Sequence record: MZ956763.1
Strand: one strand, 5' to 3'
DNA length: 64,000 nt
Origin: a phage
Under the pieces are notes generated by a model that had not been told where the DNA came from, ran no database searches, and saw only the letters and a program-made list of their open reading frames with translations. Position numbers and translations under genes: made by a program. Positions 5,474 to 35,773 of the stretch are shown in pieces; positions within the stretch are counted from its first letter, which is position 1, and each line of letters starts with the position of its first letter.

Positions 5474-7840
5474 ATGCGCATGGTAAACGACCACGCAGAA
5501 GTGATTAAGAGTTCAACTTCTTTAGAGACGTCTCAAGCACAGATTACAATGACACCTGAAATGTTCAGCCTTTTGAGTTCAGGTGTATACACATTCAAAG
5601 AAAGGGCAGTGATTCGTGAACTGTCATGTAACGCAGTAGATGCTCAAAAAGAAGCTGGAAAAGAGAACATCCCATTCCATGTGCATTTACCTACTCGTTT
5701 TGAGCCTTACTTTGAAGTTCGTGATTTTGGAACTGGTTTAACCCATGACAAAGTAATGAGTTTGTATCTGAACTACGGGGCTTCTACGAAGAATGACTCT
5801 AATGATTACATTGGTGCAATGGGTATCGGCTCAAAATCCCCATTTGCAATTGCTCAGTCATTCACAGTATCTAGCTATGTTGATGGTGTTGCTAATAAGT
5901 ACTCTGTTTACCTTGAGAATGGTATCCCTCAAGTAACTAAGCTTACTACCAACCAAACAAATGAACCCAATGGTTTAGCTGTACGTGTAGCAGTTGCTGA
6001 CCATCGTATTTCAAAGTTCTTTGAAGAGGCTGGTCACGTATACTCATACTTTGCTGTAAAACCAGAAAGTAACATTGTATATGATGATGTATTAGCAGAT
6101 ATGAATGTCATTGCCCGTGAAGAGGGTGTTTATGATGCTATGATTCATAAGCAAAGCTGGCGTTCTAGTGGCAACAGGACAGAGTTTAATGTGGTGATGG
6201 GTAATATTGCCTACCCAGTGAACATGGAAGCATTACTTGGTGATGATTTCTTCAAAGTCTTGCCAGAGTTTTTCCGTAGGAGCGTAGACCTTGTAAACAT
6301 CTACATGCCTATTGGTTCAGTGGCTATTGCAGCTTCTCGTGAAGCATTGCAGATGAATGACACGACAAAAAATGTTATCATTGAGGCTACTAAAAAGATA
6401 ACTGAAGCCATTACAAAGGATGTTATCAAGAAAGTTAATAGCCAACCTACACTCATGGATGCTGCACAGGCTTATGCTGAGTTACGTTTGAACTCACGAG
6501 AGATGTTTAATGCTGTGTGTCCAAAGCTAGAGTGGGGAGGCGTTAAGCTTGATTCTCTGGAAGAAGAATTACTAAATATTCGTCGTGGAATTATCTACGC
6601 AGAAGACGGCTCAGTCATTTATGAACGTGACGGTAAAGGTAATATTAAGGTTGATAGGAACGGGAACAATATCCCTAAAGTAGATTATCTTTATGACCCA
6701 GTTGCTTATGTCAAGTTCAACTCTTTAGAGAGTAAGATTCGTGCAACATCGCTTTCCTACACTCAAGAGGCAAGTATGTTCAATATCTTTGGCGCAATGC
6801 GTAAAAGCCAAATTGAACAGTTTTTGTTTGTTATCAATGACCGTCGCAATAAAAATGGTACTGAGAAGACTGTAGGACGCAATCAAATCTTGCGTGGTGC
6901 ATGTCGAGACTATGCCAGTGAGTCAAATCTGTTTCACAGATACAACGGTATTGTCTTTGTATTCTCTACTGAGAAAGAGTTAGACGACTTAATCAATCTG
7001 CACAAACTTGATAAAAGCTTGTTAAAGATTGTGAAGATGTCTGATAAGGAACACCATTATCAGCGTAAAGAAGCTGTAAGAGGTGTTGTAAAACTCTGGA
7101 AAGCTGTTCCAGCAGAAGGTGTAGCTTCATACACAGAGGTGTCAGAAGACTTAGACACAATTGAAGAGCCTCAACTTTATATCAAGGCAGTAGGTGATAC
7201 TGTTGATGGTGAATGTTTTTGCTCATCTCCAGATGATGTAGCTAAGTCAGTTGCCAATGTCATTGGAAAGACAGTCTATGTTTTCCGAAAAGCAAATTGG
7301 AAAAAGATACCAGAAGACTGGATTGAAGTAGATGAGAAGCTCTTGAACGACAGCTTAACTGATGTTCACTGGATTAACCATAACAGATATATGACACGTA
7401 TCTACATGAATGGTGTCCTTGACCTCACAAGCAGTTGGATTATTGCCAGAAACTTTACGTTCAATAACAAGAAGATTTCTCGTGGCTATTGCTATTCACG
7501 AGACACAAACAAAACTATCTTCTTAGAAGGTAATGAAGATGCTGTTGATGCAATGTTTGGTAAAATCCAATACGTTGCTGCACCGTTTGCATACACTTAC
7601 ACTATTAGCGTGTTGCAAGATTTGAAAAGTTGTCTTGATAATGATACAAAGCTTTACAAGAAAATTAAGAAAGCTGGTGACCGCATGGTCATTAAGGTGA
7701 CAAACTACCTTTCAAAAAGAAAACAAGAAAACTTCTTGCTTTCTCATTTAGATTGGAATAAAGTGTCACCCATCGAAGTGAGTAAGTTCTTAGGCTTTGA
7801 TGTGAAGTGTGTTCCAGAAGGGACTACAATTTACGATTAA
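5474..7840 (+). CDS. rIIA: rIIA-like protein with N-terminal GHKL (HATPase_c) ATPase domain
   Basis: 788 aa; Bergerat-fold motifs ELSCNAVDA (ExxxNxxDA), DFGTG, GAMGIGSKS near N-terminus; size/architecture like T4 rIIA. Confidence 0.5.
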   Translation: MRMVNDHAEVIKSSTSLETSQAQITMTPEMFSLLSSGVYTFKERAVIRELSCNAVDAQKEAGKENIPFHVHLPTRFEPYFEVRDFGTGLTHDKVMSLYLNYGASTKNDSNDYIGAMGIGSKSPFAIAQSFTVSSYVDGVANKYSVYLENGIPQVTKLTTNQTNEPNGLAVRVAVADHRISKFFEEAGHVYSYFAVKPESNIVYDDVLADMNVIAREEGVYDAMIHKQSWRSSGNRTEFNVVMGNIAYPVNMEALLGDDFFKVLPEFFRRSVDLVNIYMPIGSVAIAASREALQMNDTTKNVIIEATKKITEAITKDVIKKVNSQPTLMDAAQAYAELRLNSREMFNAVCPKLEWGGVKLDSLEEELLNIRRGIIYAEDGSVIYERDGKGNIKVDRNGNNIPKVDYLYDPVAYVKFNSLESKIRATSLSYTQEASMFNIFGAMRKSQIEQFLFVINDRRNKNGTEKTVGRNQILRGACRDYASESNLFHRYNGIVFVFSTEKELDDLINLHKLDKSLLKIVKMSDKEHHYQRKEAVRGVVKLWKAVPAEGVASYTEVSEDLDTIEEPQLYIKAVGDTVDGECFCSSPDDVAKSVANVIGKTVYVFRKANWKKIPEDWIEVDEKLLNDSLTDVHWINHNRYMTRIYMNGVLDLTSSWIIARNFTFNNKKISRGYCYSRDTNKTIFLEGNEDAVDAMFGKIQYVAAPFAYTYTISVLQDLKSCLDNDTKLYKKIKKAGDRMVIKVTNYLSKRKQENFLLSHLDWNKVSPIEVSKFLGFDVKCVPEGTTIYD

Positions 7841-7850
7841 AGTGTTTGAC

Positions 7851-7870
7851 AAGGGGCTTCAAAGCCCCTT
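7851..7870 (+). terminator. hairpin (terminator-like, no clear U-tract)
   Basis: AAGGGGCTTCAAAGCCCCTT palindrome right after stop. Confidence 0.4.
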
Positions 7871-7919
7871 AGAATAGCCTTACAAAATGATTTATTAACT
7901 AACAAGAGAGAGTAATAAG

Positions 7920-9029
7920 ATGACTACTAAAACTAAAGCACAGATTGACGCAGAAATTTACGAACTGGTTAAAGAAGGTAAGCTGACTAAAACAGCTATT
8001 GCACAGAAGTTCAATACTTCAACCCGTTCAGTTGGTCGTGCTGTAGAGCGTCACGAAGCAACCTTAAAAGGGAAGAAGAAGGTGACTTCTAAGCCAGCTA
8101 AGAAGACTTTGAAGCAAGTTGCTAAATCAGTTAAAAAGAAAGCTGACAAACCAGTTGAAAAGGCCGTTAAAGACGCTGTACAGAAAGCTCCAGTAAATAA
8201 ACTGCATGAAGCTATGCAGAAAGATGACAAGATTGAGTACATGATTACTGGTGACTCTGTAATTATGACTTACGGTTCAGAATCTGAAATTGTTGAGTCT
8301 ACTCATCCGAACTATCAAGAGATTGTAGTTCATGTTGTGAAAGGTGAGTTCAAGAAAGCATTTGAACTGATGAACATTCGTAAGTCTATCGAAAACTTCA
8401 CTCAGGGTGCTATCACAATCAAAGGTGACAAGCTCTTCTACGGTGCTGTTGAGATGCGTTCTACTCTGGTTGACCGTATTCTTCATATGATGAAAACTGG
8501 TGATAAAGGTTTTGAACGACTTGTAATGTTCTTCGAAAAACTGATGGAAAACCCATCTAAAGATTCTGTAGAACAACTTTGGGGATTTGTATCACACCTT
8601 GATGTTGAAATTGATGAAGAAGGCTACATCATTGGTTGGAAGAAAGTCTCTACTCGTGAAGGCAAGCTGGTTGACTCTCACACCTACAAAGTGCCTAATG
8701 ATTTGGGTAACATTGTAGAGATGCCACGTTGGATGGTTGATAACAACCGTAACGTAACTTGCTCTCAAGGTCTTCATGTTGGTGCTTGGGATTATGTTCG
8801 TTGCTTCTCAGGTGATACCATCCTGAAGGTTCGTGTCCATCCACGAGATGTTGTATCTGTTCCGACTGATTACAACGATATGAAGATGCGCTCCTCTCGT
8901 TATGAAGTTGCAGCAATCGTTGATAATCAACGTAAAGTGCTGAAAGCATGGGATGGTAAGACTGAAGCTTTGCATGTCATCGTTGGCACTGCTGGTGAAC
9001 TCATCTCTCAACGTAAACGTGAAATCTAA
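7920..9029 (+). CDS. hypothetical protein (possible rIIB-like, by position after rIIA-like gene)
   Basis: ORF 369 aa; lysine-rich N-terminal region; position only. Confidence 0.4.
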   Translation: MTTKTKAQIDAEIYELVKEGKLTKTAIAQKFNTSTRSVGRAVERHEATLKGKKKVTSKPAKKTLKQVAKSVKKKADKPVEKAVKDAVQKAPVNKLHEAMQKDDKIEYMITGDSVIMTYGSESEIVESTHPNYQEIVVHVVKGEFKKAFELMNIRKSIENFTQGAITIKGDKLFYGAVEMRSTLVDRILHMMKTGDKGFERLVMFFEKLMENPSKDSVEQLWGFVSHLDVEIDEEGYIIGWKKVSTREGKLVDSHTYKVPNDLGNIVEMPRWMVDNNRNVTCSQGLHVGAWDYVRCFSGDTILKVRVHPRDVVSVPTDYNDMKMRSSRYEVAAIVDNQRKVLKAWDGKTEALHVIVGTAGELISQRKREI

Positions 9030-9045
9030 TAAGTAATTTCTTAAA

Positions 9046-9070
9046 AGGCTGCTTCGGCGGCCTTTTTTAT
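9046..9070 (+). terminator. intrinsic terminator
   Basis: GGCTGCTTCGGCGGCC hairpin + TTTTTTAT. Confidence 0.65.
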
Positions 9071-9098
9071 TTGTATTTTGTGCAGAGTGCTGTATAAT
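9071..9098 (+). promoter_or_regulatory. sigma70-like promoter TTGTAT-16-TATAAT
   Basis: perfect -10 TATAAT at 9093-9098, upstream of 9130 gene. Confidence 0.5.
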
Positions 9099-16648: not shown

Positions 16649-17191
16649 ATGAAATGCTTTCACGGTACTACTCAAGAAAACTTCATCAACCTGATTAATA
16701 ACGGTGATAAGCCATCAGGTGCATGGAATTGTTCGGATATGGACGGCAATTTTTACGTGTATCCAGAGAATAAAATCTATGGCGACGATGAGGAAGAGAT
16801 AACATCTGAAGGCATCCAGCAAGCGTTAGGCAATGCCACTATCACGGCAGCTTTCCAGATGAAAACCCAAAATATTGTTATCTTAGAACTTGATATCCCA
16901 GAGGATGACCTGAATGATGATTATTCTTGCGATAATATGTCTGGCGTAGCAAGTTTTACAGAATACTTCGATTTGAATTGGATTAAAAAGGTTTACGTAA
17001 CTGAGTTTAATGCGATGTTTTCGCCTTTTTGTCTTCCTTCATTGGATAACCCAAATTTAAACTATCTTGACGAGTCTCTGGAACTTCTTGCTAAAAGTGT
17101 TCAACAGTCGGACAGTATTCAGGTTTTTTGTGACATCATGGATACACTAACGGGAAACATCGCAGAAGAGGATTTAAAGAGCTTTTTTTAA
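16649..17191 (+). CDS. hypothetical protein with PARP/ART-like HG[ST]..N..I..G N-terminal motif
   Basis: MKCFHGTTQENFINLINNG resembles H-Y-E class ADP-ribosyltransferase motif (cf. PARP LLWHGSRTTNFAGILSQG); tentative. Confidence 0.4.
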   Translation: MKCFHGTTQENFINLINNGDKPSGAWNCSDMDGNFYVYPENKIYGDDEEEITSEGIQQALGNATITAAFQMKTQNIVILELDIPEDDLNDDYSCDNMSGVASFTEYFDLNWIKKVYVTEFNAMFSPFCLPSLDNPNLNYLDESLELLAKSVQQSDSIQVFCDIMDTLTGNIAEEDLKSFF

Positions 17192-17232
17192 AAACCTATG
17201 CAATCACCTTATAAACACTAATCAGCCCCTTA

Positions 17233-17253
17233 CAGGGGCTTTTAAGGGGCTTA
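17233..17253 (+). terminator. intrinsic terminator
   Basis: AGCCCCT-TAC-AGGGGCT + TTTT. Confidence 0.6.
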
Positions 17254-17257
17254 AATC

Positions 17258-17491
17258 ATGCTTATAACCGTTTATCTTATCCTTTCTATTTGTAATGGCC
17301 ATTCATGTGATTTTAAAGGGCTTGAGGAGTTCACAGGAAGTAAAGAAAATGCTGTTCAGGTCTGTCAGATAGCAAGGCAAGACTACCCCGCCAGTGATGA
17401 CATACAATGTTATTTTAAGACAGAAGATGAAGATGGTATCTATTTCGATAGTGTAGACGGTCAATATGAAATAATTATAGAAAAAGACTAG
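17258..17491 (+). CDS. hypothetical small protein with N-terminal hydrophobic segment
   Basis: ORF 77 aa. Confidence 0.4.
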   Translation: MLITVYLILSICNGHSCDFKGLEEFTGSKENAVQVCQIARQDYPASDDIQCYFKTEDEDGIYFDSVDGQYEIIIEKD

Positions 17492-17517
17492 ACAAGCCTG
17501 ATAAAAATCTGTAAATT
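17489..17517 (+). promoter_or_regulatory. promoter TAGACA-17-TAAATT with conserved leader hairpin GGGAGGGATGACCTCCC
   Basis: same cassette as 18050, 18646, 18975. Confidence 0.5.
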
Positions 17518-17579
17518 GTCAATCAACGGGAGGGATGACCTCCCAACTAAACAAAGTCCTTAAACTAGGAGATTCAAAA

Positions 17580-28725: not shown

Positions 28726-29097
28726 ATGAAAAACAGAACAAACAAAGGCCAGTTTAAAAAAGGCCAGTCTGGAAACCCATCTGGAAGACCCAAAGGCTCT
28801 CGTAACAAAAGTTCACTCGTAAAAGCTCAACTGACCATTGATAATTCTGCTGAGTTTGCTGCAAAGTTGTTTGAGGCGATTGTTACAAGGGACGCTGCTA
28901 AGCTTGCAGAGTTCGGGTTAAACACAGATGACGTAACCATCAAGAGTATGATTGAGGTCGGTAAAACTATCTTTACTCACTCAGCAGGTGAGATGAAAGC
29001 ACTTGCAGCAGACACTAAGAAGACTCCTGATAATGGTGGTCAACAACAGACAGATAACAAACCAACGTTCTCTGCTGTAGCGACTCTCAAAAAATAA
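28726..29097 (+). CDS. hypothetical protein with N-terminal GNPSGRPKG basic motif
   Basis: ORF 123 aa. Confidence 0.5.
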   Translation: MKNRTNKGQFKKGQSGNPSGRPKGSRNKSSLVKAQLTIDNSAEFAAKLFEAIVTRDAAKLAEFGLNTDDVTIKSMIEVGKTIFTHSAGEMKALAADTKKTPDNGGQQQTDNKPTFSAVATLKK

Positions 29098-29178
29098 TTT
29101 TAAAAGGTGTTGACAGACTCTACAAAGTTACTCTAAAGTCTGTCACATCAAACAACAAATGAGAGAAGAGAGTAAAAT

Positions 29179-30594
29179 ATGAGCGAGTTATTTAAACATG
29201 CGCACCTTCATGCAGGTCGAACTGAAAATGGTGCTGTAAACCATACTTCATCAATGTCTGCTCTGGTAGACTTCTACAAAGCTGCTGGTTCAAGCCGTAG
29301 CAATGTAGAAATCTTACCAGACCTGTTCTACAAAGCTTTGCATGAGGATGTTGATGTTGCAGTTCGTATTTTACTGCATATGCGAGATGTACGAGAAGGT
29401 ATGGGTGAGCGTAAAGCCTTCAGGACTGTTTTGCTTCAAGCAATTGAAGATAAAGTTTTAGAGTCTACACAGGTTCTTCGCATTATGGATAAGATTGCAG
29501 AACTTGGTCGTTTTGATGACTTCAAAATCTTCGTAGGTACTCGCTTCGAGACAGATGCCTTCAAACATTTAGAAGCAGCATTACTAGACCCTGCAACAGC
29601 AGGTTTGGCAGCTAAGTGGTTGCCACGAGTCAAACCACGTCACAAACAGTTTGTAAAACGTTTCTGCAAGTTTGCCAACTTGAGTGAGAAAGAGTACCGC
29701 ACACTGTTGTCTGCACTATCTGATACAGTTGAGCAAAAAATCTCTGCTAATGAGTTTGGCAAGATTGACTACAGCAAGATTCCTTCACTTGCTGCTGCAC
29801 GTTACCAAAAACTGTTTAACCGTAAAGATGGAGAACGCTACAAAGCTTACATTGAGTCTTTATCAAAAGGTGAGACTAAGATTAACGCTGGTGCTGTTTA
29901 CCCATACGATGTGATTAAATCTGTCAAGCATGGTAATGCAGATGTTGCTAATGAGCAGTGGAAAGCACTACCAAACTGGATGGCAGAAGGTGAAAACATC
30001 TTGTGTATGACTGATGTTTCAAGCTCAATGTCTTGGGTGAATTTTGGCTCCATTACTGCTCTGGATATTGGTGTATCACTTGCATTGTATGTGGCAGAAC
30101 GCAATACAGGTTGCTTTAAGAATGAGTTGATGGTTTATTCAACAAACCCTCACTTCATCGAACTTAGTGGTGATTTACGAAACCGCCATCGTCAGGTGAT
30201 GCGACATGTTGAATATGGTTCAACTAACTTACAAGCAGCTTTTGACCGTATTCTTGAGACAGGTAAAAGAAACAACTTGACTCAGAAAGATATGCCAAGT
30301 AAGCTTATCATCTTCTCCGATATGGAGTTCAATCAGGTTGATGGAGCTAACGGTCGTACAAACTTTGAAGCAATTCAGAGTAAGTACAAGAAAGCTGGAT
30401 ACGAAATGCCACAACTGGTATTCTGGTACTTAGCAAACCGTAATGGTACTTGCGAAGTGTCTGTTAAGGATAACGGTGTAGCAATGGTATCTGGTTTCTC
30501 TCCAGCCACTTTAAAAGCTCTGCTTGGTGGTGAGAAGTTTGACCCAATCAGCGTAATGCTCAAAGCAGTAATGATTGACCGCTATATCTGGTAA
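29179..30594 (+). CDS. vWA-domain protein, candidate Ro60/TROVE-like (Rsr-like) RNA-binding protein
   Basis: 471 aa; MIDAS-like DxSxS (MTDVSSSMS) with downstream T and D (IIFSDMEF); ~270-aa helical N-terminal region; placed immediately upstream of tRNA/structured-RNA cluster. Confidence 0.5.
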   Translation: MSELFKHAHLHAGRTENGAVNHTSSMSALVDFYKAAGSSRSNVEILPDLFYKALHEDVDVAVRILLHMRDVREGMGERKAFRTVLLQAIEDKVLESTQVLRIMDKIAELGRFDDFKIFVGTRFETDAFKHLEAALLDPATAGLAAKWLPRVKPRHKQFVKRFCKFANLSEKEYRTLLSALSDTVEQKISANEFGKIDYSKIPSLAAARYQKLFNRKDGERYKAYIESLSKGETKINAGAVYPYDVIKSVKHGNADVANEQWKALPNWMAEGENILCMTDVSSSMSWVNFGSITALDIGVSLALYVAERNTGCFKNELMVYSTNPHFIELSGDLRNRHRQVMRHVEYGSTNLQAAFDRILETGKRNNLTQKDMPSKLIIFSDMEFNQVDGANGRTNFEAIQSKYKKAGYEMPQLVFWYLANRNGTCEVSVKDNGVAMVSGFSPATLKALLGGEKFDPISVMLKAVMIDRYIW

Positions 30595-30613
30595 AAAGTT
30601 TTAAAAAGGGTAT

Positions 30614-30642
30614 TGACAATGTGTTTGATACCCTTTAATATG
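30614..30642 (+). promoter_or_regulatory. sigma70-like promoter TTGACA-17-TAATAT upstream of tRNA cluster
   Basis: near-consensus hexamers with 17-nt spacer. Confidence 0.6.
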
Positions 30643-30759
30643 TTCTACATAGAAACGAAACGAGAGCTTTTCTAAGATACTGAAAAATATTTTAAAAAAG
30701 TTCTTGACAATCACTAAAAAATAATGTTAAAGTGGTTACATAGAGTTTGAAAAGTTTAT

Positions 30760-30836
30760 CTCTGTTTAGCTCAGCTTGGTAGAGCGTTCCGTTTGGGGCG
30801 GTAAGGCCGGAGGTTCAAGTCCTCCAACAGAGACCA
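30760..30836 (+). tRNA. tRNA-Pro (anticodon TGG)
   Basis: acceptor CTCTGTT/AACAGAG, T-arm GGAGG-TTCAAGT-CCTCC, anticodon loop TTTGGGG, CCA encoded. Confidence 0.8.
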
Positions 30837-30843
30837 AATTAAT

Positions 30844-30921
30844 GTTCCAGTAGACAAAATGGTAAAGTCACCACTCTTTCAAAGTGGATATCTGAGGGTT
30901 CAAATCCCTTCTGGAACGCCA
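30844..30921 (+). tRNA. tRNA-Glu (anticodon TTC)
   Basis: acceptor GTTCCAG/CTGGAAC, anticodon arm CCACT-CTTTCAA-AGTGG, T-loop TTCAAAT. Confidence 0.8.
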
Positions 30922-30926
30922 GTTTT

Positions 30927-31003
30927 GACAGAAGACCAATTACAGCAAACTTAATCTTATTCATCTGAAGGTAAATCGGACAAAGAAGAGATTTGGTCTG
31001 GTC
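30927..31003 (+). ncRNA. structured element A (conserved ACAGAAGACC...GGTCTGG terminal stem)
   Basis: 5' GACAGAAGACCAATTACAGCAA, 3' ATTTGGTCTGGTC; family members at 31095, 31576, 31663. Confidence 0.45.
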
Positions 31004-31013
31004 ATTAAGAATT

Positions 31014-31089
31014 GCGGGTATAGAGAAAGGGCGTCTCACATGTCTCATTAGCATGGTATCGGCAGGTTCGACTCCTGCACCCGCCTCCA
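31014..31089 (+). tRNA. tRNA-Met (anticodon CAT)
   Basis: D-stem GAGA/TCTC, anticodon arm CATGT-CTCATTA-GCATG, T-arm GCAGG-TTCGACT-CCTGC; acceptor pairing imperfect by eye. Confidence 0.65.
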
Positions 31090-31094
31090 AATTT

Positions 31095-31160
31095 ACAGAA
31101 GACCGTTTACAGCAATATTTATTAAATTTTTAGCGGAAAAATTGAAAGATACGGTCTGGT
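31095..31160 (+). ncRNA. structured element B (ACAGAAGACCG...CGGTCTGG stem)
   Basis: same terminal stem motif and TTACAGCAA box as element A. Confidence 0.45.
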
Positions 31161-31172
31161 AATACTAAACAT

Positions 31173-31249
31173 GGTTAGGAAGCACATAAGGTATGTGCGG
31201 TCGCCTGTTAAGCGAATGGCACAGGGTTCGAATCCCTGACTAACCGCCA
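31173..31249 (+). tRNA. tRNA-Asn (anticodon GTT)
   Basis: acceptor GGTTAGG/ACTAACC, D-stem GCAC/GTGC, loop CTGTTAA, T-arm CAGGG-TTCGAAT-CCCTG. Confidence 0.8.
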
Positions 31250-31318
31250 AATTTAGGAGAGAAGCGATTGCTCACCGATTTGTAAGGTGCAAGTCCTTAG
31301 CCTGAATAGAAATTAAAT

Positions 31319-31405
31319 GTGTCGTTATCCCGTAGATGGTAGCGGTGGGGACTGTAAATCCCTTGTCATTGAGACTCGGTAGGTTCGACTCCTACACGGC
31401 ACACC
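31319..31405 (+). tRNA. tRNA-Tyr (anticodon GTA), class II
   Basis: acceptor GTGTCGT/ACGGCAC, anticodon arm GGGGA-CTGTAAA-TCCCT, long variable arm, T-loop TTCGACT. Confidence 0.75.
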
Positions 31406-31411
31406 AATAAA

Positions 31412-31489
31412 GGCTATGTAGTTTAATAGGGTTAAAATACTCCCCTGTCACGGGAGATGATGTGAGTTCAAGTCTCATCGTAGCCGCCA
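31412..31489 (+). tRNA. tRNA-Asp (anticodon GTC)
   Basis: acceptor GGCTATG/CGTAGCC, anticodon arm CTCCC-CTGTCAC-GGGAG, T-loop TTCAAGT. Confidence 0.8.
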
Positions 31490-31575
31490 AATTATAATAA
31501 GTATTTCAAAATGATGTTTTGAGAGGGCTATTTAGCCCCTCCCTTAAAGAGTTCTTACGAGTATTCTTTAAAGGA

Positions 31576-31651
31576 GCAGAAGACCAAATACAGCAAGTTA
31601 CTTAAAATTTCAAGCCAATTTAATTTTGAAAAATTTAAAACTTGGTCTGGC
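31576..31651 (+). ncRNA. structured element C (GCAGAAGACCAAATACAGCAA...TTGGTCTGG)
   Basis: same terminal stem motif family. Confidence 0.45.
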
Positions 31652-31662
31652 TCAACAAATTT

Positions 31663-31794
31663 ACAGAAGACCGTTTACAGCAAAACTTAAACAATCTATT
31701 TCTCGGTAAAGAAAAGGAGAAGGTTCGATTCCTTCACTCGGCAGATGTCGAGTTGGTGTAATGGTAGCACTTAAGATGGTAAACAACGGTCTGG
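31663..31794 (+). ncRNA. structured element D with internal permuted tRNA-like domain (candidate YrlA-like Y RNA)
   Basis: terminal stem ACAGAAGACCGTTT/AAACAACGGTCTGG; internal order T-arm (GAAGG-TTCGATT-CCTTC), acceptor 3' strand ACTCGGC, loop AGAT, acceptor 5' strand GTCGAGT, D-arm GTGTAATGGTAGCAC. Confidence 0.5.
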
Positions 31795-31938
31795 TAATTA
31801 TCTTTGTAGATAAGTTATTAAGCTTACCTGTGAGTATGCGACCACAAAGGGTGAAAGGGTAAATTCTAGATTTAAACCCAAAAAGGCACATCGCTACAGA
31901 CCTTAAGCAAGTCTGGGTAGCTTATCTACAAAGATAAT
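31795..31938 (+). repeat. 19-bp perfect inverted repeat flanking a 106-nt segment
   Basis: AATTATCTTTGTAGATAAG at 31795-31813 and exact reverse complement CTTATCTACAAAGATAATT at 31920-31938. Confidence 0.85.
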
Positions 31939-31943
31939 TTAAT

Positions 31944-32019
31944 GGAAGTGTAGCAGAATGGTGATGCGGCAGACTTTTAATCTGACAGGCGATGGGTTCG
32001 AATCCCTCCACTTCTACCA
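31944..32019 (+). tRNA. tRNA-Lys (anticodon TTT)
   Basis: acceptor GGAAGTG/CACTTCT, anticodon arm GCAGA-CTTTTAA-TCTGA, T-loop TTCGAAT; T-stem weak by eye. Confidence 0.65.
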
Positions 32020-32023
32020 AAAT

Positions 32024-32100
32024 GGTTCAGTCGCAGATAAGGTAATGCAAGGGTTTCATAAGCCCTATGAATGTGGGTTCGATTCCCATCTGAACCTCCA
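32024..32100 (+). tRNA. tRNA with CAT anticodon (Met, fMet or Ile-lysidine)
   Basis: acceptor GGTTCAG/CTGAACC, anticodon arm AGGGT-TTCATAA-GCCCT, T-arm GTGGG-TTCGATT-CCCAT. Confidence 0.7.
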
Positions 32101-32102
32101 AT

Positions 32103-32177
32103 TGTGGGTTAGCATAAATGGTAATGCAAACGGCTGATAACCGTTAGAAGAGGGTTCGATACCCTCACCTACAACCA
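32103..32177 (+). tRNA. tRNA-Ile (anticodon GAT)
   Basis: acceptor TGTGGGT/ACCTACA, D-stem GCAT/ATGC, anticodon arm AACGG-CTGATAA-CCGTT, T-loop TTCGATA. Confidence 0.8.
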
Positions 32178-32192
32178 ATTTCAATAGAGTTG

Positions 32193-32221
32193 TTGACATT
32201 GAGATGTGACTACTTTATAGT
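32193..32221 (+). promoter_or_regulatory. sigma70-like promoter TTGACA-17-TATAGT inside tRNA cluster
   Basis: consensus -35, good -10; followed by ~290 nt without tRNA. Confidence 0.55.
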
Positions 32222-32514
32222 AACTAAAATACTTCACAATATGTATAATTCAAACACCAATACATGAGCGTTAGACGTAACACAATGTGGGGAAATTTGT
32301 TGTACATATTCTGAATAGTTTTCGTTGCGTAGCGTCTATTTTGCAAATTTAAAATAAATGCAAACGACAATGTTTTTCTGGCAGTAGCTTGATAGGCTAA
32401 ACACCAGTGAGGTCTTCCAATCCCTCATCAAAGAATTTGGCGTACTCGCCCACGGTATGATTAATAAGGTGGGCATCTTTAAGGGCTTTCTAAGAGAGTC
32501 TTTAAAGATAATTA

Positions 32515-32596
32515 CGGGGCGTATCTCAGCGGTCTTCTAAACCGCCGTTAACCGAGTAAGTGGAGTATGCGGGTTCGAGTCCTGCCGCCTCGACCA
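32515..32596 (+). tRNA. atypical tRNA-like gene, possible tRNA-Arg (anticodon TCT)
   Basis: acceptor CGGGGCG/CGCCTCG + A + CCA, T-arm GCGGG-TTCGAGT-CCTGC, arm GCGGT-CTTCTAA-ACCGC; no canonical D-arm found by eye, 23-nt segment before T-arm. Confidence 0.45.
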
Positions 32597-32738
32597 ATTT
32601 AGTTAGCAGATTACTTAGACGACCTAAGCGGGTCTTCCTGTAGGGAGGTGGTCTGTATCTCATGTTTTCCAGAACATGTAAATAATCTGAGAAGGGGCTT
32701 TACAGTGTTGAGATAATACGGTAAGCTTCGAATTATAG

Positions 32739-32822
32739 TGTGGGACGATGTTAAGACTCTAAGGCATGAGCAACGGCCTCCAAAACCGTTTCAAAGGGGT
32801 TCAACTCCTCCGTCCCATGCCA
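32739..32822 (+). tRNA. atypical tRNA, possible tRNA-Trp (anticodon CCA)
   Basis: acceptor GTGGGAC/GTCCCAT + G + CCA, anticodon arm ACGGC-CTCCAAA-ACCGT, T-loop TTCAACT; D-region ~8 nt longer than canonical. Confidence 0.5.
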
Positions 32823-32835
32823 AAGTCTTATTAGG

Positions 32836-32923
32836 GGTAGGTAGCGGCTAATGGCAGCCAAACAGTCTTGAAAACTGTTGCCACTGTAGAGATACGGTGA
32901 GGGTTCGACTCCTTTACTTACCG
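32836..32923 (+). tRNA. tRNA-Ser (anticodon TGA), class II
   Basis: acceptor GGTAGGT/ACTTACC, anticodon arm ACAGT-CTTGAAA-ACTGT, 20-nt variable arm, T-arm GAGGG-TTCGACT-CCTTT. Confidence 0.7.
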
Positions 32924-33180
32924 CCTAATAAGATTTAAAGCCAAGCTTCATTCGGATGTCGCTTTGGTATCCCGCGTGTATTGTCGTACACACTGATAAA
33001 ACACCTAGTAGGTGTCACGGAGAAGAGATAATATCAAGCTCTCCAAAGGTTCTAGTCACCGGATTAAACAAGACTATGCAAAGACCTTTTTAGGTCTTTT
33101 TAGAGGGCTTCTAAGGTTATTACAGCTTGTTGTGGAACCTTGTTGCTTAGGTTCTTAGAAGTTCTCTAAAAAGATTTAAT

Positions 33181-33258
33181 GGGAGATTGACGGTAATTGG
33201 TAAACCTACCATCCTTAGAAGTTGGTGTTTGAGGGTTCGAATCCCTTGTCTCCTACCA
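33181..33258 (+). tRNA. tRNA with TAG anticodon (Leu by anticodon) but short variable arm
   Basis: acceptor GGGAGAT/GTCTCCT + A + CCA, anticodon arm CCATC-CTTAGAA-GTTGG, T-arm GAGGG-TTCGAAT-CCCTT, variable ~5 nt. Confidence 0.55.
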
Positions 33259-33265
33259 AATTAAT

Positions 33266-33341
33266 GCAGGTGTAGCAAAATGGTTATGCGGCTGACTCTT
33301 AATCAGTAAGACGATGGGTTCAATTCCCTCCACCTGTACCA
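33266..33341 (+). tRNA. tRNA-Lys (anticodon CTT)
   Basis: paralog of 31944 tRNA; acceptor GCAGGTG/CACCTGT, anticodon arm GCTGA-CTCTTAA-TCAGT. Confidence 0.65.
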
Positions 33342-33347
33342 GACATT

Positions 33348-33423
33348 GGGGTCATAGTTTATATGGTTAAAATTCGAGTTTTGCAAACTTGGGAACTGAG
33401 TTCAATTCTCAGTGACTCCACCA
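33348..33423 (+). tRNA. tRNA-Ala (anticodon TGC)
   Basis: acceptor GGGGTCA/TGACTCC, anticodon arm CGAGT-TTTGCAA-ACTTG, T-arm CTGAG-TTCAATT-CTCAG. Confidence 0.8.
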
Positions 33424-33429
33424 ATTAGT

Positions 33430-33504
33430 GCATCCATAGTTTAAACGGGAAAATTACAGTCTTCCAAACTGAGGTTGAGGGTTCGATTCCCTCTGGATGC
33501 TCCA
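33430..33504 (+). tRNA. tRNA-Gly (anticodon TCC)
   Basis: acceptor GCATCCA/TGGATGC, anticodon loop CTTCCAA, T-arm GAGGG-TTCGATT-CCCTC. Confidence 0.8.
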
Positions 33505-33511
33505 AATTAAT

Positions 33512-33587
33512 GCTCCTATCGTATAATAGGCTATTACGGTTGCCTTGTAAGCAACTTATCAGGGTTCGAATCCTTGTGGGAGCACCA
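33512..33587 (+). tRNA. tRNA-Thr (anticodon TGT)
   Basis: acceptor GCTCCTA/TGGGAGC, anticodon arm GTTGC-CTTGTAA-GCAAC, T-loop TTCGAAT. Confidence 0.8.
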
Positions 33588-33590
33588 ATT

Positions 33591-33677
33591 CAGAGGTCAA
33601 GTGAAAGACCGCTGGTGTCAACTGAAGACCGTAACAAATTCCACGGAGTTGAGTTAGCGGCACAACTTCAGACCTCT
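33591..33677 (+). ncRNA. structured element E (CAGAGGTC...GACCTCT stem, internal AAGACCG boxes)
   Basis: inverted repeat AGAGGTC/GACCTCT enclosing ~70 nt containing two copies of the GAAGACCG box. Confidence 0.35.
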
Positions 33678-33681
33678 TTCA

Positions 33682-33757
33682 CACTCGCTTAGTTTATATG
33701 GTAAAACACCACCCTTACAAGATGAAGAAAAAGGTTCAAGTCCTTTAGTGAGTACCA
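33682..33757 (+). tRNA. tRNA-like gene, possibly tRNA-Val (TAC) or pseudogene
   Basis: acceptor ACTCGCT/AGTGAGT + A + CCA, D-stem GTTT/AAAC, T-arm AAAGG-TTCAAGT-CCTTT; anticodon-region CCACC-CTTACAA-GATGA does not pair. Confidence 0.4.
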
Positions 33758-33758
33758 T

Positions 33759-33836
33759 GTTCCAGTATCCCAATTGGCAGAGGATGCAAGCTCAAACCTT
33801 GTATTAGTGACGGTTCGAATCCGTCTTGGAACACCA
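33759..33836 (+). tRNA. tRNA with CAA anticodon (Leu by anticodon) but short variable arm
   Basis: acceptor GTTCCAG/TTGGAAC + A + CCA, anticodon arm GCAAG-CTCAAAC-CTTGT, T-arm GACGG-TTCGAAT-CCGTC, variable 6 nt. Confidence 0.6.
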
Positions 33837-33855
33837 ATTTTAAGAGGCTATTTAG

Positions 33856-34413
33856 ATGAGATATTTGAAGTATGCTTCATGGATTTTCCTAGCTTTACTA
33901 GAGCCATTTGCAGCAACCCTATCAGTCATCTTAGCACCTTTCGTAGTTCCATTCTACAGTGAGAAGAAAGGACACCTACCTTTTGGATTCAGATGGATGG
34001 AGACCTATGACAACCCAATTGATGGTGATGAAGGTCACGTTAAAAGATGGGCTAAGATTAGAAAGATTGGTAAGCTGGGTGTCTACATGCAGAGAGTTGG
34101 ATGGCTCTGGAGAAACAAAGCTTATAACTTCTCTTACCATGTATTAGGAAGAGATGTAAAAGATGTTACTAAGTGGAAAGGTAATATCAACGTAAGTTCT
34201 GACCCTGAAGATAATCAGACAGGTTATCTCCTAATGTGGAACAACAATGCTTGGGGATTATTCGCTTTTATTCCGTCAATTAAAATCTTTGGTAAACAGT
34301 TTTACTGGAGAATTTATGTTGGATGGAAACTAAAAAGTGTTGTCCCAGAAGAAAGAGCATTCTCAAGGGAAAGAGTTATGTTGGCATTCTTTATTCATCC
34401 ACTGAGAAAGTAA
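33856..34413 (+). CDS. hypothetical membrane-associated protein encoded inside tRNA cluster
   Basis: ORF 185 aa, hydrophobic N-terminus (WIFLALLEPFAATLSVILAPFVVPF), Trp/Lys-rich. Confidence 0.45.
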   Translation: MRYLKYASWIFLALLEPFAATLSVILAPFVVPFYSEKKGHLPFGFRWMETYDNPIDGDEGHVKRWAKIRKIGKLGVYMQRVGWLWRNKAYNFSYHVLGRDVKDVTKWKGNINVSSDPEDNQTGYLLMWNNNAWGLFAFIPSIKIFGKQFYWRIYVGWKLKSVVPEERAFSRERVMLAFFIHPLRK

Positions 34414-34421
34414 AGATTTAA

Positions 34422-34497
34422 AGGGGATTAGTTTACAAGGTTAAAACCTCGGTCTTTGAAATCGAAGAAGTTGGTTCAATTCCAACATCCCCAGCCA
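34422..34497 (+). tRNA. tRNA-Gln (anticodon TTG)
   Basis: D-stem GTTT/AAAC, anticodon arm TCGGT-CTTTGAA-ATCGA, T-arm GTTGG-TTCAATT-CCAAC, 3' ATCCCCA-G-CCA. Confidence 0.7.
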
Positions 34498-34499
34498 AT

Positions 34500-34579
34500 G
34501 CTCCATTACTCCAATTGGCAGAGAGGCCAGACTTAAAATCTGTGTTATGTATCGGTTCGAATCCGATATGGAGTACCAA
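34500..34579 (+). tRNA. tRNA with TAA anticodon (Leu by anticodon) but short variable arm
   Basis: acceptor GCTCCAT/ATGGAGT + A + CCA, anticodon arm CCAGA-CTTAAAA-TCTGT, T-arm ATCGG-TTCGAAT-CCGAT. Confidence 0.6.
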
Positions 34580-34584
34580 TTTTA

Positions 34585-34660
34585 GCGGTATAGCATAATT
34601 GGCAATGCAACAGTCTCTGAAGCTGTCCTATTAAGGTTCAAATCCTTATACCGCTGCCAC
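34585..34660 (+). tRNA. tRNA-Gln (anticodon CTG)
   Basis: acceptor AGCGGTA/TACCGCT, D-stem GCAT/ATGC, anticodon arm ACAGT-CTCTGAA-GCTGT, T-arm TAAGG-TTCAAAT-CCTTA. Confidence 0.7.
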
Positions 34661-34691
34661 TTCTAAGGGTTCTTACGAGAGTCCTTAAATG

Positions 34692-34767
34692 TGGCCTTAT
34701 CATAAATGGTAATGACCCATGCTGTGAACATGGTCTATACGGGTTCAAATCCCGTAGGTCACCCCAA
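34692..34767 (+). tRNA. tRNA-His (anticodon GTG)
   Basis: acceptor GTGGCCT/AGGTCAC, D-stem TCAT/ATGA, anticodon arm CCATG-CTGTGAA-CATGG, T-arm ACGGG-TTCAAAT-CCCGT. Confidence 0.8.
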
Positions 34768-34772
34768 TTTAT

Positions 34773-34849
34773 AGTCCAAGTAGCTTATATGGTTAAAGCG
34801 CGTGTCTGAAAAACATGAGAAGAGGGTTCAAATCCCACTGGACTACCAA
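34773..34849 (+). tRNA. tRNA-Phe (anticodon GAA)
   Basis: acceptor TAGTCCA/TGGACTA, anticodon arm CGTGT-CTGAAAA-ACATG, T-loop TTCAAAT; 3' CCA not fully encoded. Confidence 0.7.
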
Positions 34850-34864
34850 TTTCAAAGGTGCTTA

Positions 34865-35599
34865 ATGAAAGAGATGACAGAACAAGGTAAGGAGATTTTT
34901 AATCTCTTAAAAACCGGTAAAGGGTTTTCTAACCCACTTATTACTGGTGCAGCAGTTCTCGGTGGAACCGTAGCTGCCTCTACATCACTTGTAAGCTCTA
35001 TTAGCTCTGTAACAGACCCTACAATGAATGAGAAACTTGTTGCTGCTGGACTTACAACAGTCCTTCTAAACAGCTTTACAACAAGCCTGACAAGCACTAC
35101 AGCAACTACTAAGACCCTAACAGACTATGGTCAAAAGTCTATTGATGAGTTTTCATCACGTATGCAGGTAGCAAAGGGATACTCCAATGTTATGGGTGCA
35201 GCAGGAGAACAAGTTGGTTGTACACCGTTCAGTGGTATTATGGGTGTTGCTACAGAATATGGTCAAAAAGCTATTGATACGATTAACAGTACACTAGAGA
35301 GTGTTAACGATGTATTAAGTGACTTACAAGACGCTATTGACAAGGGTCTTGATACTGTTTCTGATTTAGCTAACCAAGCTGTCAGTAAGATTAATGAAGG
35401 TATCTCAAAGATTACAGCTTATGCAGATGAAGTTGTGCAGATGATTGAAGAAGAAGCTGCCCTTATTGCAGAGTACCTTAAAACGAATATCAATGGGTTC
35501 TTAGCAGGTATCTTACCAGACTGGTTTGATGATGCTTGTAAAACTGGTGTGATTGACACTATTGCAACACCAGAAATGAAGAACGCATTACAGAAATAA
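34865..35599 (+). CDS. hypothetical Ser/Thr/Ala-rich protein (between tRNA-Phe and tRNA-Ser)
   Basis: start moved to ATG 34865 (MKEMTEQG..) because ORF-track start lies inside tRNA-Phe; 244 aa. Confidence 0.5.
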   Translation: MKEMTEQGKEIFNLLKTGKGFSNPLITGAAVLGGTVAASTSLVSSISSVTDPTMNEKLVAAGLTTVLLNSFTTSLTSTTATTKTLTDYGQKSIDEFSSRMQVAKGYSNVMGAAGEQVGCTPFSGIMGVATEYGQKAIDTINSTLESVNDVLSDLQDAIDKGLDTVSDLANQAVSKINEGISKITAYADEVVQMIEEEAALIAEYLKTNINGFLAGILPDWFDDACKTGVIDTIATPEMKNALQK

Positions 35600-35600
35600 T

Positions 35601-35693
35601 GGAAGATTAACCCTAAAAGGTAAGGGAGCAGTTTGCTAAACTGCCAGTAGCTGAGAAATCGGTGTACCAGTTCAAGTCTGGTATCTTCCTCCA
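35601..35693 (+). tRNA. tRNA-Ser (anticodon GCT), class II
   Basis: acceptor GGAAGAT/ATCTTCC + T + CCA, anticodon arm GCAGT-TTGCTAA-ACTGC, 21-nt variable arm, T-arm ACCAG-TTCAAGT-CTGGT. Confidence 0.8.
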
Positions 35694-35697
35694 ATTT

Positions 35698-35773
35698 GAA
35701 TCCGTGACAGAAATGGCTATGTGCCTGTCTGCAAAACAGGTTTATAAGGGTTCGAGTCCCTTCGGATTCTCCA
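35698..35773 (+). tRNA. tRNA-Cys (anticodon GCA)
   Basis: acceptor GAATCCG/CGGATTC + T + CCA, anticodon arm CCTGT-CTGCAAA-ACAGG, T-arm AAGGG-TTCGAGT-CCCTT. Confidence 0.8.

Follow-up and report, generated by a model that had tools for sequence, protein, structure and literature searches.

A probable Y-RNA-type non-coding RNA with a tRNA-mimicking half in the tRNA array of a Felix O1-type phage

The Ro60 protein and its Y RNAs form an RNA-surveillance system that is conserved from bacteria to humans. We know of no function that has been established for the tRNA-like module carried by bacterial Y RNAs. In YrlA of S. Typhimurium, the domains follow one another in the order anticodon (AC) strand, variable (V) element, T stem-loop (17 nt), closed acceptor stem (AS), UA, D stem-loop (15 nt) and AC strand (6CU1; 10.1101/312249). 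YrlA RNAs are described as bound by Ro60/Rsr and as carrying pseudouridine-55 and dihydrouridine, and the YrlA of M. smegmatis is cleaved by RNase P. Among phages, Y RNAs beside a canonical Ro60 are known from mycobacteriophages, CcrColossus, Bacillus phage G and Thermus phage phiLo, and phiLo Ro60 with its Yrl RNA is reported to assemble with host PNPase in vitro (PMC12135203). Here we describe Y4, an element at positions 31660–31797 of a 64,000-nt stretch of phage DNA (record MZ956763.1; “the window” throughout is this whole stretch), which we consider probably encodes a Y-RNA-type non-coding RNA with a tRNA-mimicking effector half that would dock on a Ro60-fold protein.

The source phage is of the Felix O1 type (Felixounavirus). 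Y4 lies within a 454-nt gap between tRNA-Asp and tRNA-Lys, enclosed by an array of 24 tRNA genes (30760–35773, plus strand), and overlaps none of them. The element and its parts are as follows.

31660–31797, plus strand: Y4, predicted Y-like RNA of YrlA type with a tRNA-like core (minimum free energy fold, covariance models, covariation)
31661–31664/31794–31797, plus strand: outer helix UUAC/GUAA, 4 bp
31665–31667/31793, plus strand: internal loop AGA/G
31668–31675/31785–31792, plus strand: basal helix
31676–31683, plus strand: UACAGCAA
31686–31690/31771–31775, plus strand: short AC-like helix
31695–31718, plus strand: V (variable-arm-like) hairpin UUUCU-CGGUAA-AGAAA (minimum free energy fold)
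31719–31735, plus strand: T-arm GAAGG-UUCGAUU-CCUUC, invariant in close relatives and covarying in distant ones
31736–31753, plus strand: closed acceptor-like hairpin ACUCGGC-AGAU-GUCGAGU, 7 bp with one G-U
31754–31770, plus strand: UG linker (tRNA positions 8–9) and D-arm GUGU-AAUGGUA-GCAC

An earlier note, made from the sequence alone, had described 31663–31794 as a terminal stem enclosing an anticodon-arm-like hairpin, a T-arm, an acceptor hairpin closed by a loop and a D-arm. All of the motifs it listed lie where it placed them, and the folding that it proposed as a check favored its architecture: this is the unconstrained minimum free energy fold of 31663–31794 (−35.3 kcal/mol; z = −2.87; 2 of 200 shuffles fold as well), with AGACCGUU/AACGGUCU as the terminal stem. 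The span captured the core and fell short at the ends, the element reaching 3 nt further on each side and thereby gaining the outer UUAC/GUAA helix beyond the AGA/G internal loop. The first hairpin is present, with a 6-nt loop (CGGUAA), and stands at the position of a variable arm and not of an anticodon arm.

The core carries the tRNA invariants U8, A14, G18G19, A21, U54U55C56, A58 and G53-C61, and its linker, UG in Y4, is UA in most relatives. When cores were un-permuted and given to ARAGORN, the constructs from Michonne and from locus L038 (loci are cited by our L numbers) were accepted as tRNAs as designed, in a lenient test that had no shuffled control; for Y4, the equally lenient test called 187 of 720 cut-point variants and did not call the hand-made construct. 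The geometry of the Y4 core is, as modeled in this way, compatible with that of a tRNA. Y4 lies under no conserved open reading frame (ORF): the only sizeable one over it, 76 aa on the minus strand, is not conserved in Michonne or SUSP2, and indels between genera in this region have lengths that are not multiples of three.

The stretch 31490–31943 matches 252 phage records, mostly at 95–99% identity, and none of these records carries an RNA annotation over it. We aligned the gap across three genera, Felixounavirus, Mooglevirus (Michonne, Mijalis, ESh21) and Suspvirus (SUSP2, mistaenkt). The T-arm, D-arm and basal stems are invariant (one D-loop position varies), and the acceptor hairpin swaps its sequence with pairing kept (ACUCGGC/GUCGAGU, ACCCUUC/GAAGGGU, ACACGU/GCGUGU), such that 3 of its 7 pairs have changed on both sides; 94.9% of alignment cells are paired, versus 43–53% when the partners are slid. 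In the larger alignments of the wider family described below, which were fitted to the model so that their pairing counts are inflated, 92% (20 sequences) and 86% (47 distinct sequences) of cells are paired, versus 38–45% with slid partners, 31 of 33 pairs show compensatory changes, and all 7 acceptor pairs have changed on both sides. Pairing in these alignments is 99–100% of cells in the T-arm, 91–93% in the basal helix, where 8 of 8 pairs covary, and 72–83% in the V hairpin, the least conserved helix. The helices of different lineages are unrelated in sequence, as in a T stem CAGGG/CCCUG or a basal helix AGUAUAG/CUAUACU. Both the control with slid partners and the independent result from the three genera argue for a real covariation signal.

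These data bear on two readings named in the earlier note, a circularly permuted tRNA gene and, as its refuting case, a decayed fragment of two tRNA genes. Tandem tRNAs do match the model weakly (window 32016–32147; T4 tRNA-Leu/Gly), and the acceptor loop of Michonne and Mijalis, G-CCA-AACA, resembles an encoded 3′ end. However, in Y4 the long terminal stem takes up the anticodon position. The lack of an anticodon stem-loop excludes a permuted tRNA gene, and neither ARAGORN nor the Rfam tRNA model makes a call on an element whose acceptor is closed by a 4-nt loop. A decayed tRNA pair is excluded because the closed hairpin, with its mutually complementary strands, covaries and because no tRNA gene is overlapped. 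The element has also been kept across three genera, and its architecture reaches phages of Actinobacteria. A functionless relic of either kind is thus scarcely credible, being largely refuted by covariation. In Michonne (L001, ~3175–3195), Mijalis and L035 (7941–8070; A-CCA-AAAUCU), the loop corresponds to a discriminator followed by an encoded CCA, and the Y4 loop, AGAU, has no CCA. The CCA-loop versions look as though RNase P cleavage could turn them into open tRNA-like halves that end in CCA, by analogy with M. smegmatis YrlA. Elsewhere in the family, the acceptor hairpin is often capped by a stable tetraloop (GUAA, UUCG, UACG), which suggests that the closed hairpin is the functional state.

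Y4 has three shorter paralogs in the same array.

30925–31004, plus strand: Y1, outer helix UGAC/GUCA, AGA/G loop, AGACC/GGUCU helix and UACAGCAA, no core; between tRNA-Glu and tRNA-Met
31092–31162, plus strand: Y2, outer helix UUAC/GUAA, no core; between tRNA-Met and tRNA-Asn
31573–31653, plus strand: Y3, outer helix GAGC/GCUC, no tRNA-like core; conserved

Y1–Y3 consist of the basal stem only. Features in common with Y4 are the AGA/G loop, the AGACC/GGUCU helix, UACAGCAA and an outer helix of 4 bp that shows sequence covariation from one paralog to another. A 20-nt motif, CAGAAGACCNNNTWCAGCAA, occurs four times, always on the plus strand (0.03 occurrences expected), and GGTCTGG follows each copy on that strand. 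With covariance models built from the three genera (R1) and by iteration (R2), Y4 scores 146 and 120 bits, Y1 39.3 and 41.7 bits, and Y2 46.1 and 43.6 bits, respectively; Y3 scores 37.1 bits with R2.

Such a repeat could also act as DNA, as a set of repeated promoters or as a target for recombination or a homing endonuclease. TTGACA/TTTACA starts three of the four copies, the copy at 31092 is promoter-like (TTTACA-16-AATATT), and genes for HNH and homing endonucleases are frequent in such arrays. However, Y3 lacks a −35-like hexamer, all copies lie on one strand, and neither the paired 3′ strand nor the compensatory changes, including those of the basal helix, are explained at the DNA level, making this account highly improbable.

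The following gene, which the earlier note overlooked, lies 1,065 nt upstream of Y4 on the same strand and ends 165 nt before the first tRNA.

29179–30594, plus strand: Ro-like protein, 471 aa; HEAT-repeat ring and vWA domain with MIDAS (metal-ion-dependent adhesion site) motif DVSGSM

The protein matches the Pfam families DUF2828 and DUF7788 and phrog_850 (“RNA-binding protein”). An AlphaFold2 model built with 35 homologs (predicted local distance difference test 86.7; predicted template modeling score 0.87) was compared with the PDB by Foldseek, and the nine best matches, all full length, were Ro60/TROVE proteins (template modeling score, TM, up to 0.67), among them the Ro60 of Xenopus (TM 0.67) and that of Thermus phage phiLo, and Deinococcus Rsr; the matches after these nine were isolated vWA domains only. 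The MIDAS motif DVSGSM is invariant (D279, S281 and S283). A sequence search of the PDB with this protein gave no sequence-level match. As modeled, then, the product of 29179–30594 has a Ro60 fold and falls outside the Ro60/TROVE family by sequence. For reference, gp220 of mycobacteriophage ET08, a canonical phage Ro, matches both Pfam TROVE and vWA_Ro60.

DUF2828/DUF7788 proteins are present in at least 710 phage genomes, with hosts among Proteobacteria, Firmicutes, Actinobacteria and Campylobacter. We searched 75 viral loci encoding relatives of the Ro-like protein at 38–45% identity. At an R2 cut-off of E ≤ 0.01 there were 50 matches, every one on the strand of the Ro-like gene and 3 of them overlapping tRNA genes; 29 of the 75 distant loci had at least one match, and 28 of 42 distant tRNA-free matches lay within 300 nt of the Ro-like gene. 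The three that overlap tRNA genes are tandem-tRNA artefacts of the kind that Chen et al. (PMC4201824) warned about, and weak first-round matches in L039 and L041 (at 7979) were removed, as they overlap tRNA-Gln. The tRNA regions of T4 and T5, used as negative controls, yielded nothing beyond tandem-tRNA artefacts.

The matches recur in several settings. In L087, five tandem Y-like RNAs directly follow the Ro-like gene, ahead of the tRNA array, and a sixth lies inside the array; Vibrio phage D480 has one copy flush between two tRNAs; and in the GC-rich Mycobacterium phage MiniMac a full-length match of 59 bits is found 96 nt downstream of a “Ro-like RNA binding protein” (34% identity). Short copies that have an ACAGCAA motif and marginal E-values (0.003–0.07 in the Gram-positive phages) abut the gene in phages of Campylobacter, Listeria and Staphylococcus. 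The family signature is 5′-AAAG-[helix]-U.CAGCAA ... AAAA-[helix]-CUGA-3′, to which members with a core add a T-loop showing GGUUCGA, UA as the linker and a D-loop showing A.UGGUA.

We envisage that Y4 is probably co-transcribed with the tRNA array, which starts downstream of the Ro-like gene. Two candidate promoters lie in that interval.

30613–30641 and 30704–30733, plus strand: sigma-70-like promoter matches, after the Ro-like gene and before the first tRNA

These match the consensus only, with no enrichment over shuffles, and are weak evidence; a possible start of the array transcript at these promoter-like sites (30613–30733) is a prediction from sequence. The enzymes that process the neighboring tRNAs would then also release Y4, since the short copies on its flanks lie within 3–11 nt of tRNA genes.

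The same proximity could have another cause, namely that the elements are cis-acting parts of the tRNA precursor, spacers that order RNase P, E or Z cleavage or shield tRNAs, with no role as free RNAs. Y1, Y2 and the element E3 (described below) all lie within a few nucleotides of tRNA genes, the copy in L089 is flush between two tRNAs, and a 7-bp acceptor-like stem with a T-arm is an RNase P-type substrate, and RNase P cleaves M. smegmatis YrlA. However, many members sit beside the Ro-like gene without an adjacent tRNA (MiniMac, L030, L013, L025), and a processing role leaves the single-stranded CAGCAA and the stable tetraloops unexplained; we therefore regard it as quite unlikely.

Returning to a Y-RNA-type role, the likely docking site for the gp130 ortholog is the basal stem, that is, the outer helix, the AGA/G loop, the helix closed by A-U/G-C, the U.CAGCAA opposite an A-rich strand and the CUGA 3′ end. 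The L-shaped T/D/acceptor core would show a tRNA-like surface to a second partner, for which candidates are a host defense factor directed at tRNA, enzymes that modify or repair tRNA, or an exoribonuclease such as PNPase. PNPase would be the first candidate, by analogy with the Deinococcus RYPER and the phiLo complex (PMC12135203). An RtcB-like ligase beside the Ro-like gene of Listeria phage LP-064 may point to the handling of damaged tRNAs.

Functional data exist for a close relative of the Ro-like protein, which is 97.9% identical to bas63_0130 (gp130) of phage Bas63. A preprint using PhageMaP reported that Bas63 gp130 resembles Ro60, is encoded upstream of tRNA genes and counters the Ppl defense (10.1101/2024.10.10.617714). 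Protein and locus are the same as those considered here. Its authors went no further than to suggest that Y RNAs might be among the annotated tRNA genes (10.1101/2024.10.10.617714), whereas our candidates are not annotated tRNAs and sit in the gaps between them. The Bas63 region is annotated with two small minus-strand ORFs, bas63_0137 and bas63_0138, which we judge spurious and which serve to mark insertions in the RNAs. The betaML values from the PhageMaP tables (barcode insertions; Ppl strain versus laboratory host) are as follows.

Gene 130 (Ro-like protein): Ppl −2.9 to −3.7; laboratory host +0.6 to +0.7
Gene 137 (almost the whole of Y4 and the 3′ end of Y3): Ppl +0.55 to +0.73; laboratory host +0.4 to +0.9
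Gene 138 (E3): Ppl +0.18 to +0.87; laboratory host +0.3 to +1.0

Y4 is not needed for anti-Ppl activity, because insertions in gene 137 are neutral and gp130 alone suffices. It is dispensable under the PhageMaP conditions, in which Y1 and Y2 were intact (genes 131–133 are without data). Disruption of the small gene directly upstream of the Ro-like gene, bas63_0129 (DUF5681; ortholog at window ~28727–29098), was also strongly deleterious on Ppl, at −2.4 to −2.5, and milder on the laboratory host, at −0.9 to −1.5; polarity on gene 130 or a second component could be the cause.

The Ppl data lend themselves to a further account, in which the RNA mimics tRNA independently of the Ro-like protein, as a decoy or sponge for tRNA-directed nucleases or defense factors or as a regulator of tRNA-modifying or processing enzymes, and the linkage of the genes reflects shared regulation. 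gp130 counters Ppl without phage RNAs, Y4 insertions do not phenocopy its loss, the core geometry is compatible with tRNA, and the setting is a large tRNA array, of a kind often tied to escape from tRNA-targeting defenses (10.1101/2024.10.10.617714). However, it is the basal stem and CAGCAA, and not the core, that are most conserved across the family, many members have no core at all, and the RNAs hug the Ro-like gene even in phages where that gene is not beside the tRNA array. We consider this account unlikely and prefer a Y-RNA-type partner of the Ro60-fold protein.

Several observations weigh against that preference, among them the model-fitted family alignments and the marginal matches in Gram-positive phages described above. 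The GNCGAA(N0-1)G motif is absent from the 5′ region of Y1–Y4, where the consensus is U.CAGCAA instead, and the nucleotide before the T stem, opposite A15, is A (Y4, Michonne) or C (SUSP2), which does not fit a Levitt pair. Rfam, at gathering thresholds and at E ≤ 10, returned no relevant family for the gap. The Ro-like protein has no match to Pfam TROVE (PF05731) or vWA_Ro60 (PF25045), and hhalign aligns it with ET08 Ro over just 40 columns around the MIDAS, at 77% probability. gp130 alone rescues T7 on Ppl (10.1101/2024.10.10.617714), and insertions covering Y4 are tolerated on both hosts, with no mimicry of gp130 loss on Ppl. Finally, the transcription, discrete ends and protein binding of Y4 are predictions.

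The gap that holds Y3 and Y4 contains two further conserved elements.

31518–31574, plus strand: E0, two hairpins directly upstream of Y3, kept in Felixounavirus, Mooglevirus and Suspvirus
31797–31943, plus strand: E3, conserved 147-nt RNA directly after Y4, ending flush with tRNA-Lys

E3 has a terminal stem of ~24 bp that covaries, with several compensatory changes between genera, and a variable interior. One of its hairpins, CAGAC-CUUAAGCAA-GUCUG (CAAACC-CUUUAGCAA-GGUUUG in relatives), echoes the Y-RNA motif, and E3 may belong to the same system as Y1–Y4. In Bas63, insertions in gene 138, which overlaps E3, are neutral. The E0 stretch also holds a conserved TTG-initiated ORF of 28–35 aa (MRGLFSPSLKEFLRVFFKGAEDQIQQ...), which is probably non-coding. 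Elsewhere in the array, an Rfam tRNA call at 32515–32593 (31.7 bits), missed by ARAGORN, is syntenic with an annotated tRNA-Arg (AGA) in Bas63 and Michonne, so that the array probably comprises 25 tRNAs. Two function-unassigned protein genes are embedded in it, at 33856–34413 (DUF7338) and 34802–35599 (DUF7217).

The distant loci have features of their own. Unusually long (90–94 nt) “tRNA-Ile (tat)” calls occur in several phages, directly upstream of a Y-like RNA in L038 and L045.

L038, 10267–10358: long “tRNA-Ile (tat)”
L045, 8597–8688: long “tRNA-Ile (tat)”
L019, 4919–5010: long “tRNA-Ile (tat)”
L020, 6726–6819: long “tRNA-Ile (tat)”
L013, 8160–8253: long “tRNA-Ile (tat)”
L034, 9326–9415: long “tRNA-Ile (tat)”

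ARAGORN also calls a permuted transfer-messenger RNA (tag ANTNFALAA) at 1317–1767 of L034, ~3.3 kb upstream of the Ro-like gene. Near that gene in L087 (2042–7566) are genes for nicotinamide adenine dinucleotide salvage (NAPRTase, PRPP synthetase, NMN transporter, NadR-like), and in LP-064 (L094, 6813–8024) an RtcB-like tRNA ligase, an HD phosphohydrolase and a “tRNA amidotransferase”.

Beyond this locus, it is about an even call whether Y4 represents, as its first example, a widespread and hitherto undescribed class of phage ribonucleoprotein, in which DUF2828/DUF7788 proteins of Ro60 fold would be paired with AAAG-helix-U.CAGCAA...CUGA Y-like RNAs, with or without a tRNA-mimic module and typically expressed from tRNA arrays, for counter-defense or the handling of tRNA damage. 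We found no paper describing these RNAs. A large unannotated family of phage proteins gains concrete candidate RNA partners from this finding, and for one of its members, Bas63 gp130, a genetic phenotype, the countering of Ppl, has already been reported, making gp130 and Ppl in E. coli phages a tractable starting system, though Y4 is not needed there. A second, previously unseen Ro-docking motif is suggested. The candidates would also account for conserved “gaps”, and for small ORFs that are spurious, in tRNA arrays across hundreds of phages that are candidates for therapy (the Felix O1 group, Listeria P100-like, staphylococcal and Campylobacter phages), and would place tRNA mimics within the conflict between phage and host over tRNAs.

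Small stable RNAs released together with tRNAs, some with T-arms, are known from phage tRNA arrays as rnaC and rnaD of T4 and RNA1 and RNA2 of T5, and in this respect Y1–Y4 would resemble them. The T4 and T5 RNAs are without the CAGCAA signature, and we rejected them as family members: with filters off, R2 gave only a T-arm match of 16.6 bits to rnaC besides tandem-tRNA artefacts, and it gave no match to the T5 stable RNAs, of which RNA1 and RNA2 fold in a non-permuted way. The T5 tRNA region (L091) has eight annotated stable RNAs of unassigned function (6285–6645, 7809–7980, 8839–9084, 16849–17567); RNA1 and RNA2 are tRNA-like, with a large insert in the anticodon region.

In the phage pairs of ET08 and its relatives and of phiLo, too, a Ro-type ring protein has small structured RNAs encoded next to it, but the proteins are recognizable TROVE members and the RNAs carry a CGAA motif (PMC12135203). 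The available text reports no tRNA-like domain for phiLo Yrl1 or Yrl2 (PMC12135203). ET08 YrlA, located 186 nt upstream of its Ro gene, has the same element order and the same folding as Y4, and both it and ET08 YrlB carry the GNCGAA-type motif (GGCCGAGAG / GGCCGAAGG). In a partial reverse test, our family models matched the authentic ET08 YrlA through its T-AS-D core, with 18.9 and 33.3 bits. The adjacency of the LP-064 Ro-like gene to an RtcB-like ligase recalls bacterial rsr operons.

With YrlA itself, Y4 has in common the order of the elements and the sizes of the arms, the UUCGA T-loop, G53-C61, A14, G18G19 and A21 (PMC4201824; 6CU1; 10.1101/312249). A YUAY-like UUAC follows the Y4 stem. 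Like YrlA RNAs, Y4 also has a Ro60 gene on its own strand at a distance of less than 4 kb, this gene being Ro60-like by fold only, and Y1–Y3 beside Y4 mirror YrlB beside YrlA in being shorter and having the stem without the tRNA module. The two differ in the Levitt pair 15:48, A:U or G:C in YrlA and A (Y4, Michonne) or C (SUSP2) opposite A15 here, in the partner, a Pfam TROVE/vWA_Ro60 protein for YrlA and a DUF2828/DUF7788 protein next to Y4, and in the interleaving of four copies with tRNA genes, which is unlike YrlA. The resemblance to tRNA-mimicking bacterial Y RNAs proposed in the earlier note thus holds for the architecture, in its YrlA order and in the Ro60-fold gene upstream, and does not extend to strict YrlA membership: we have not filed Y4 as a YrlA because it has no GNCGAA, its partner is not TROVE by sequence and the Levitt pair does not fit. 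Y1–Y4 and their protein appear instead to be a distinct, apparently widespread variant of the Ro/Y-RNA system, with its own docking motif and a divergent partner.

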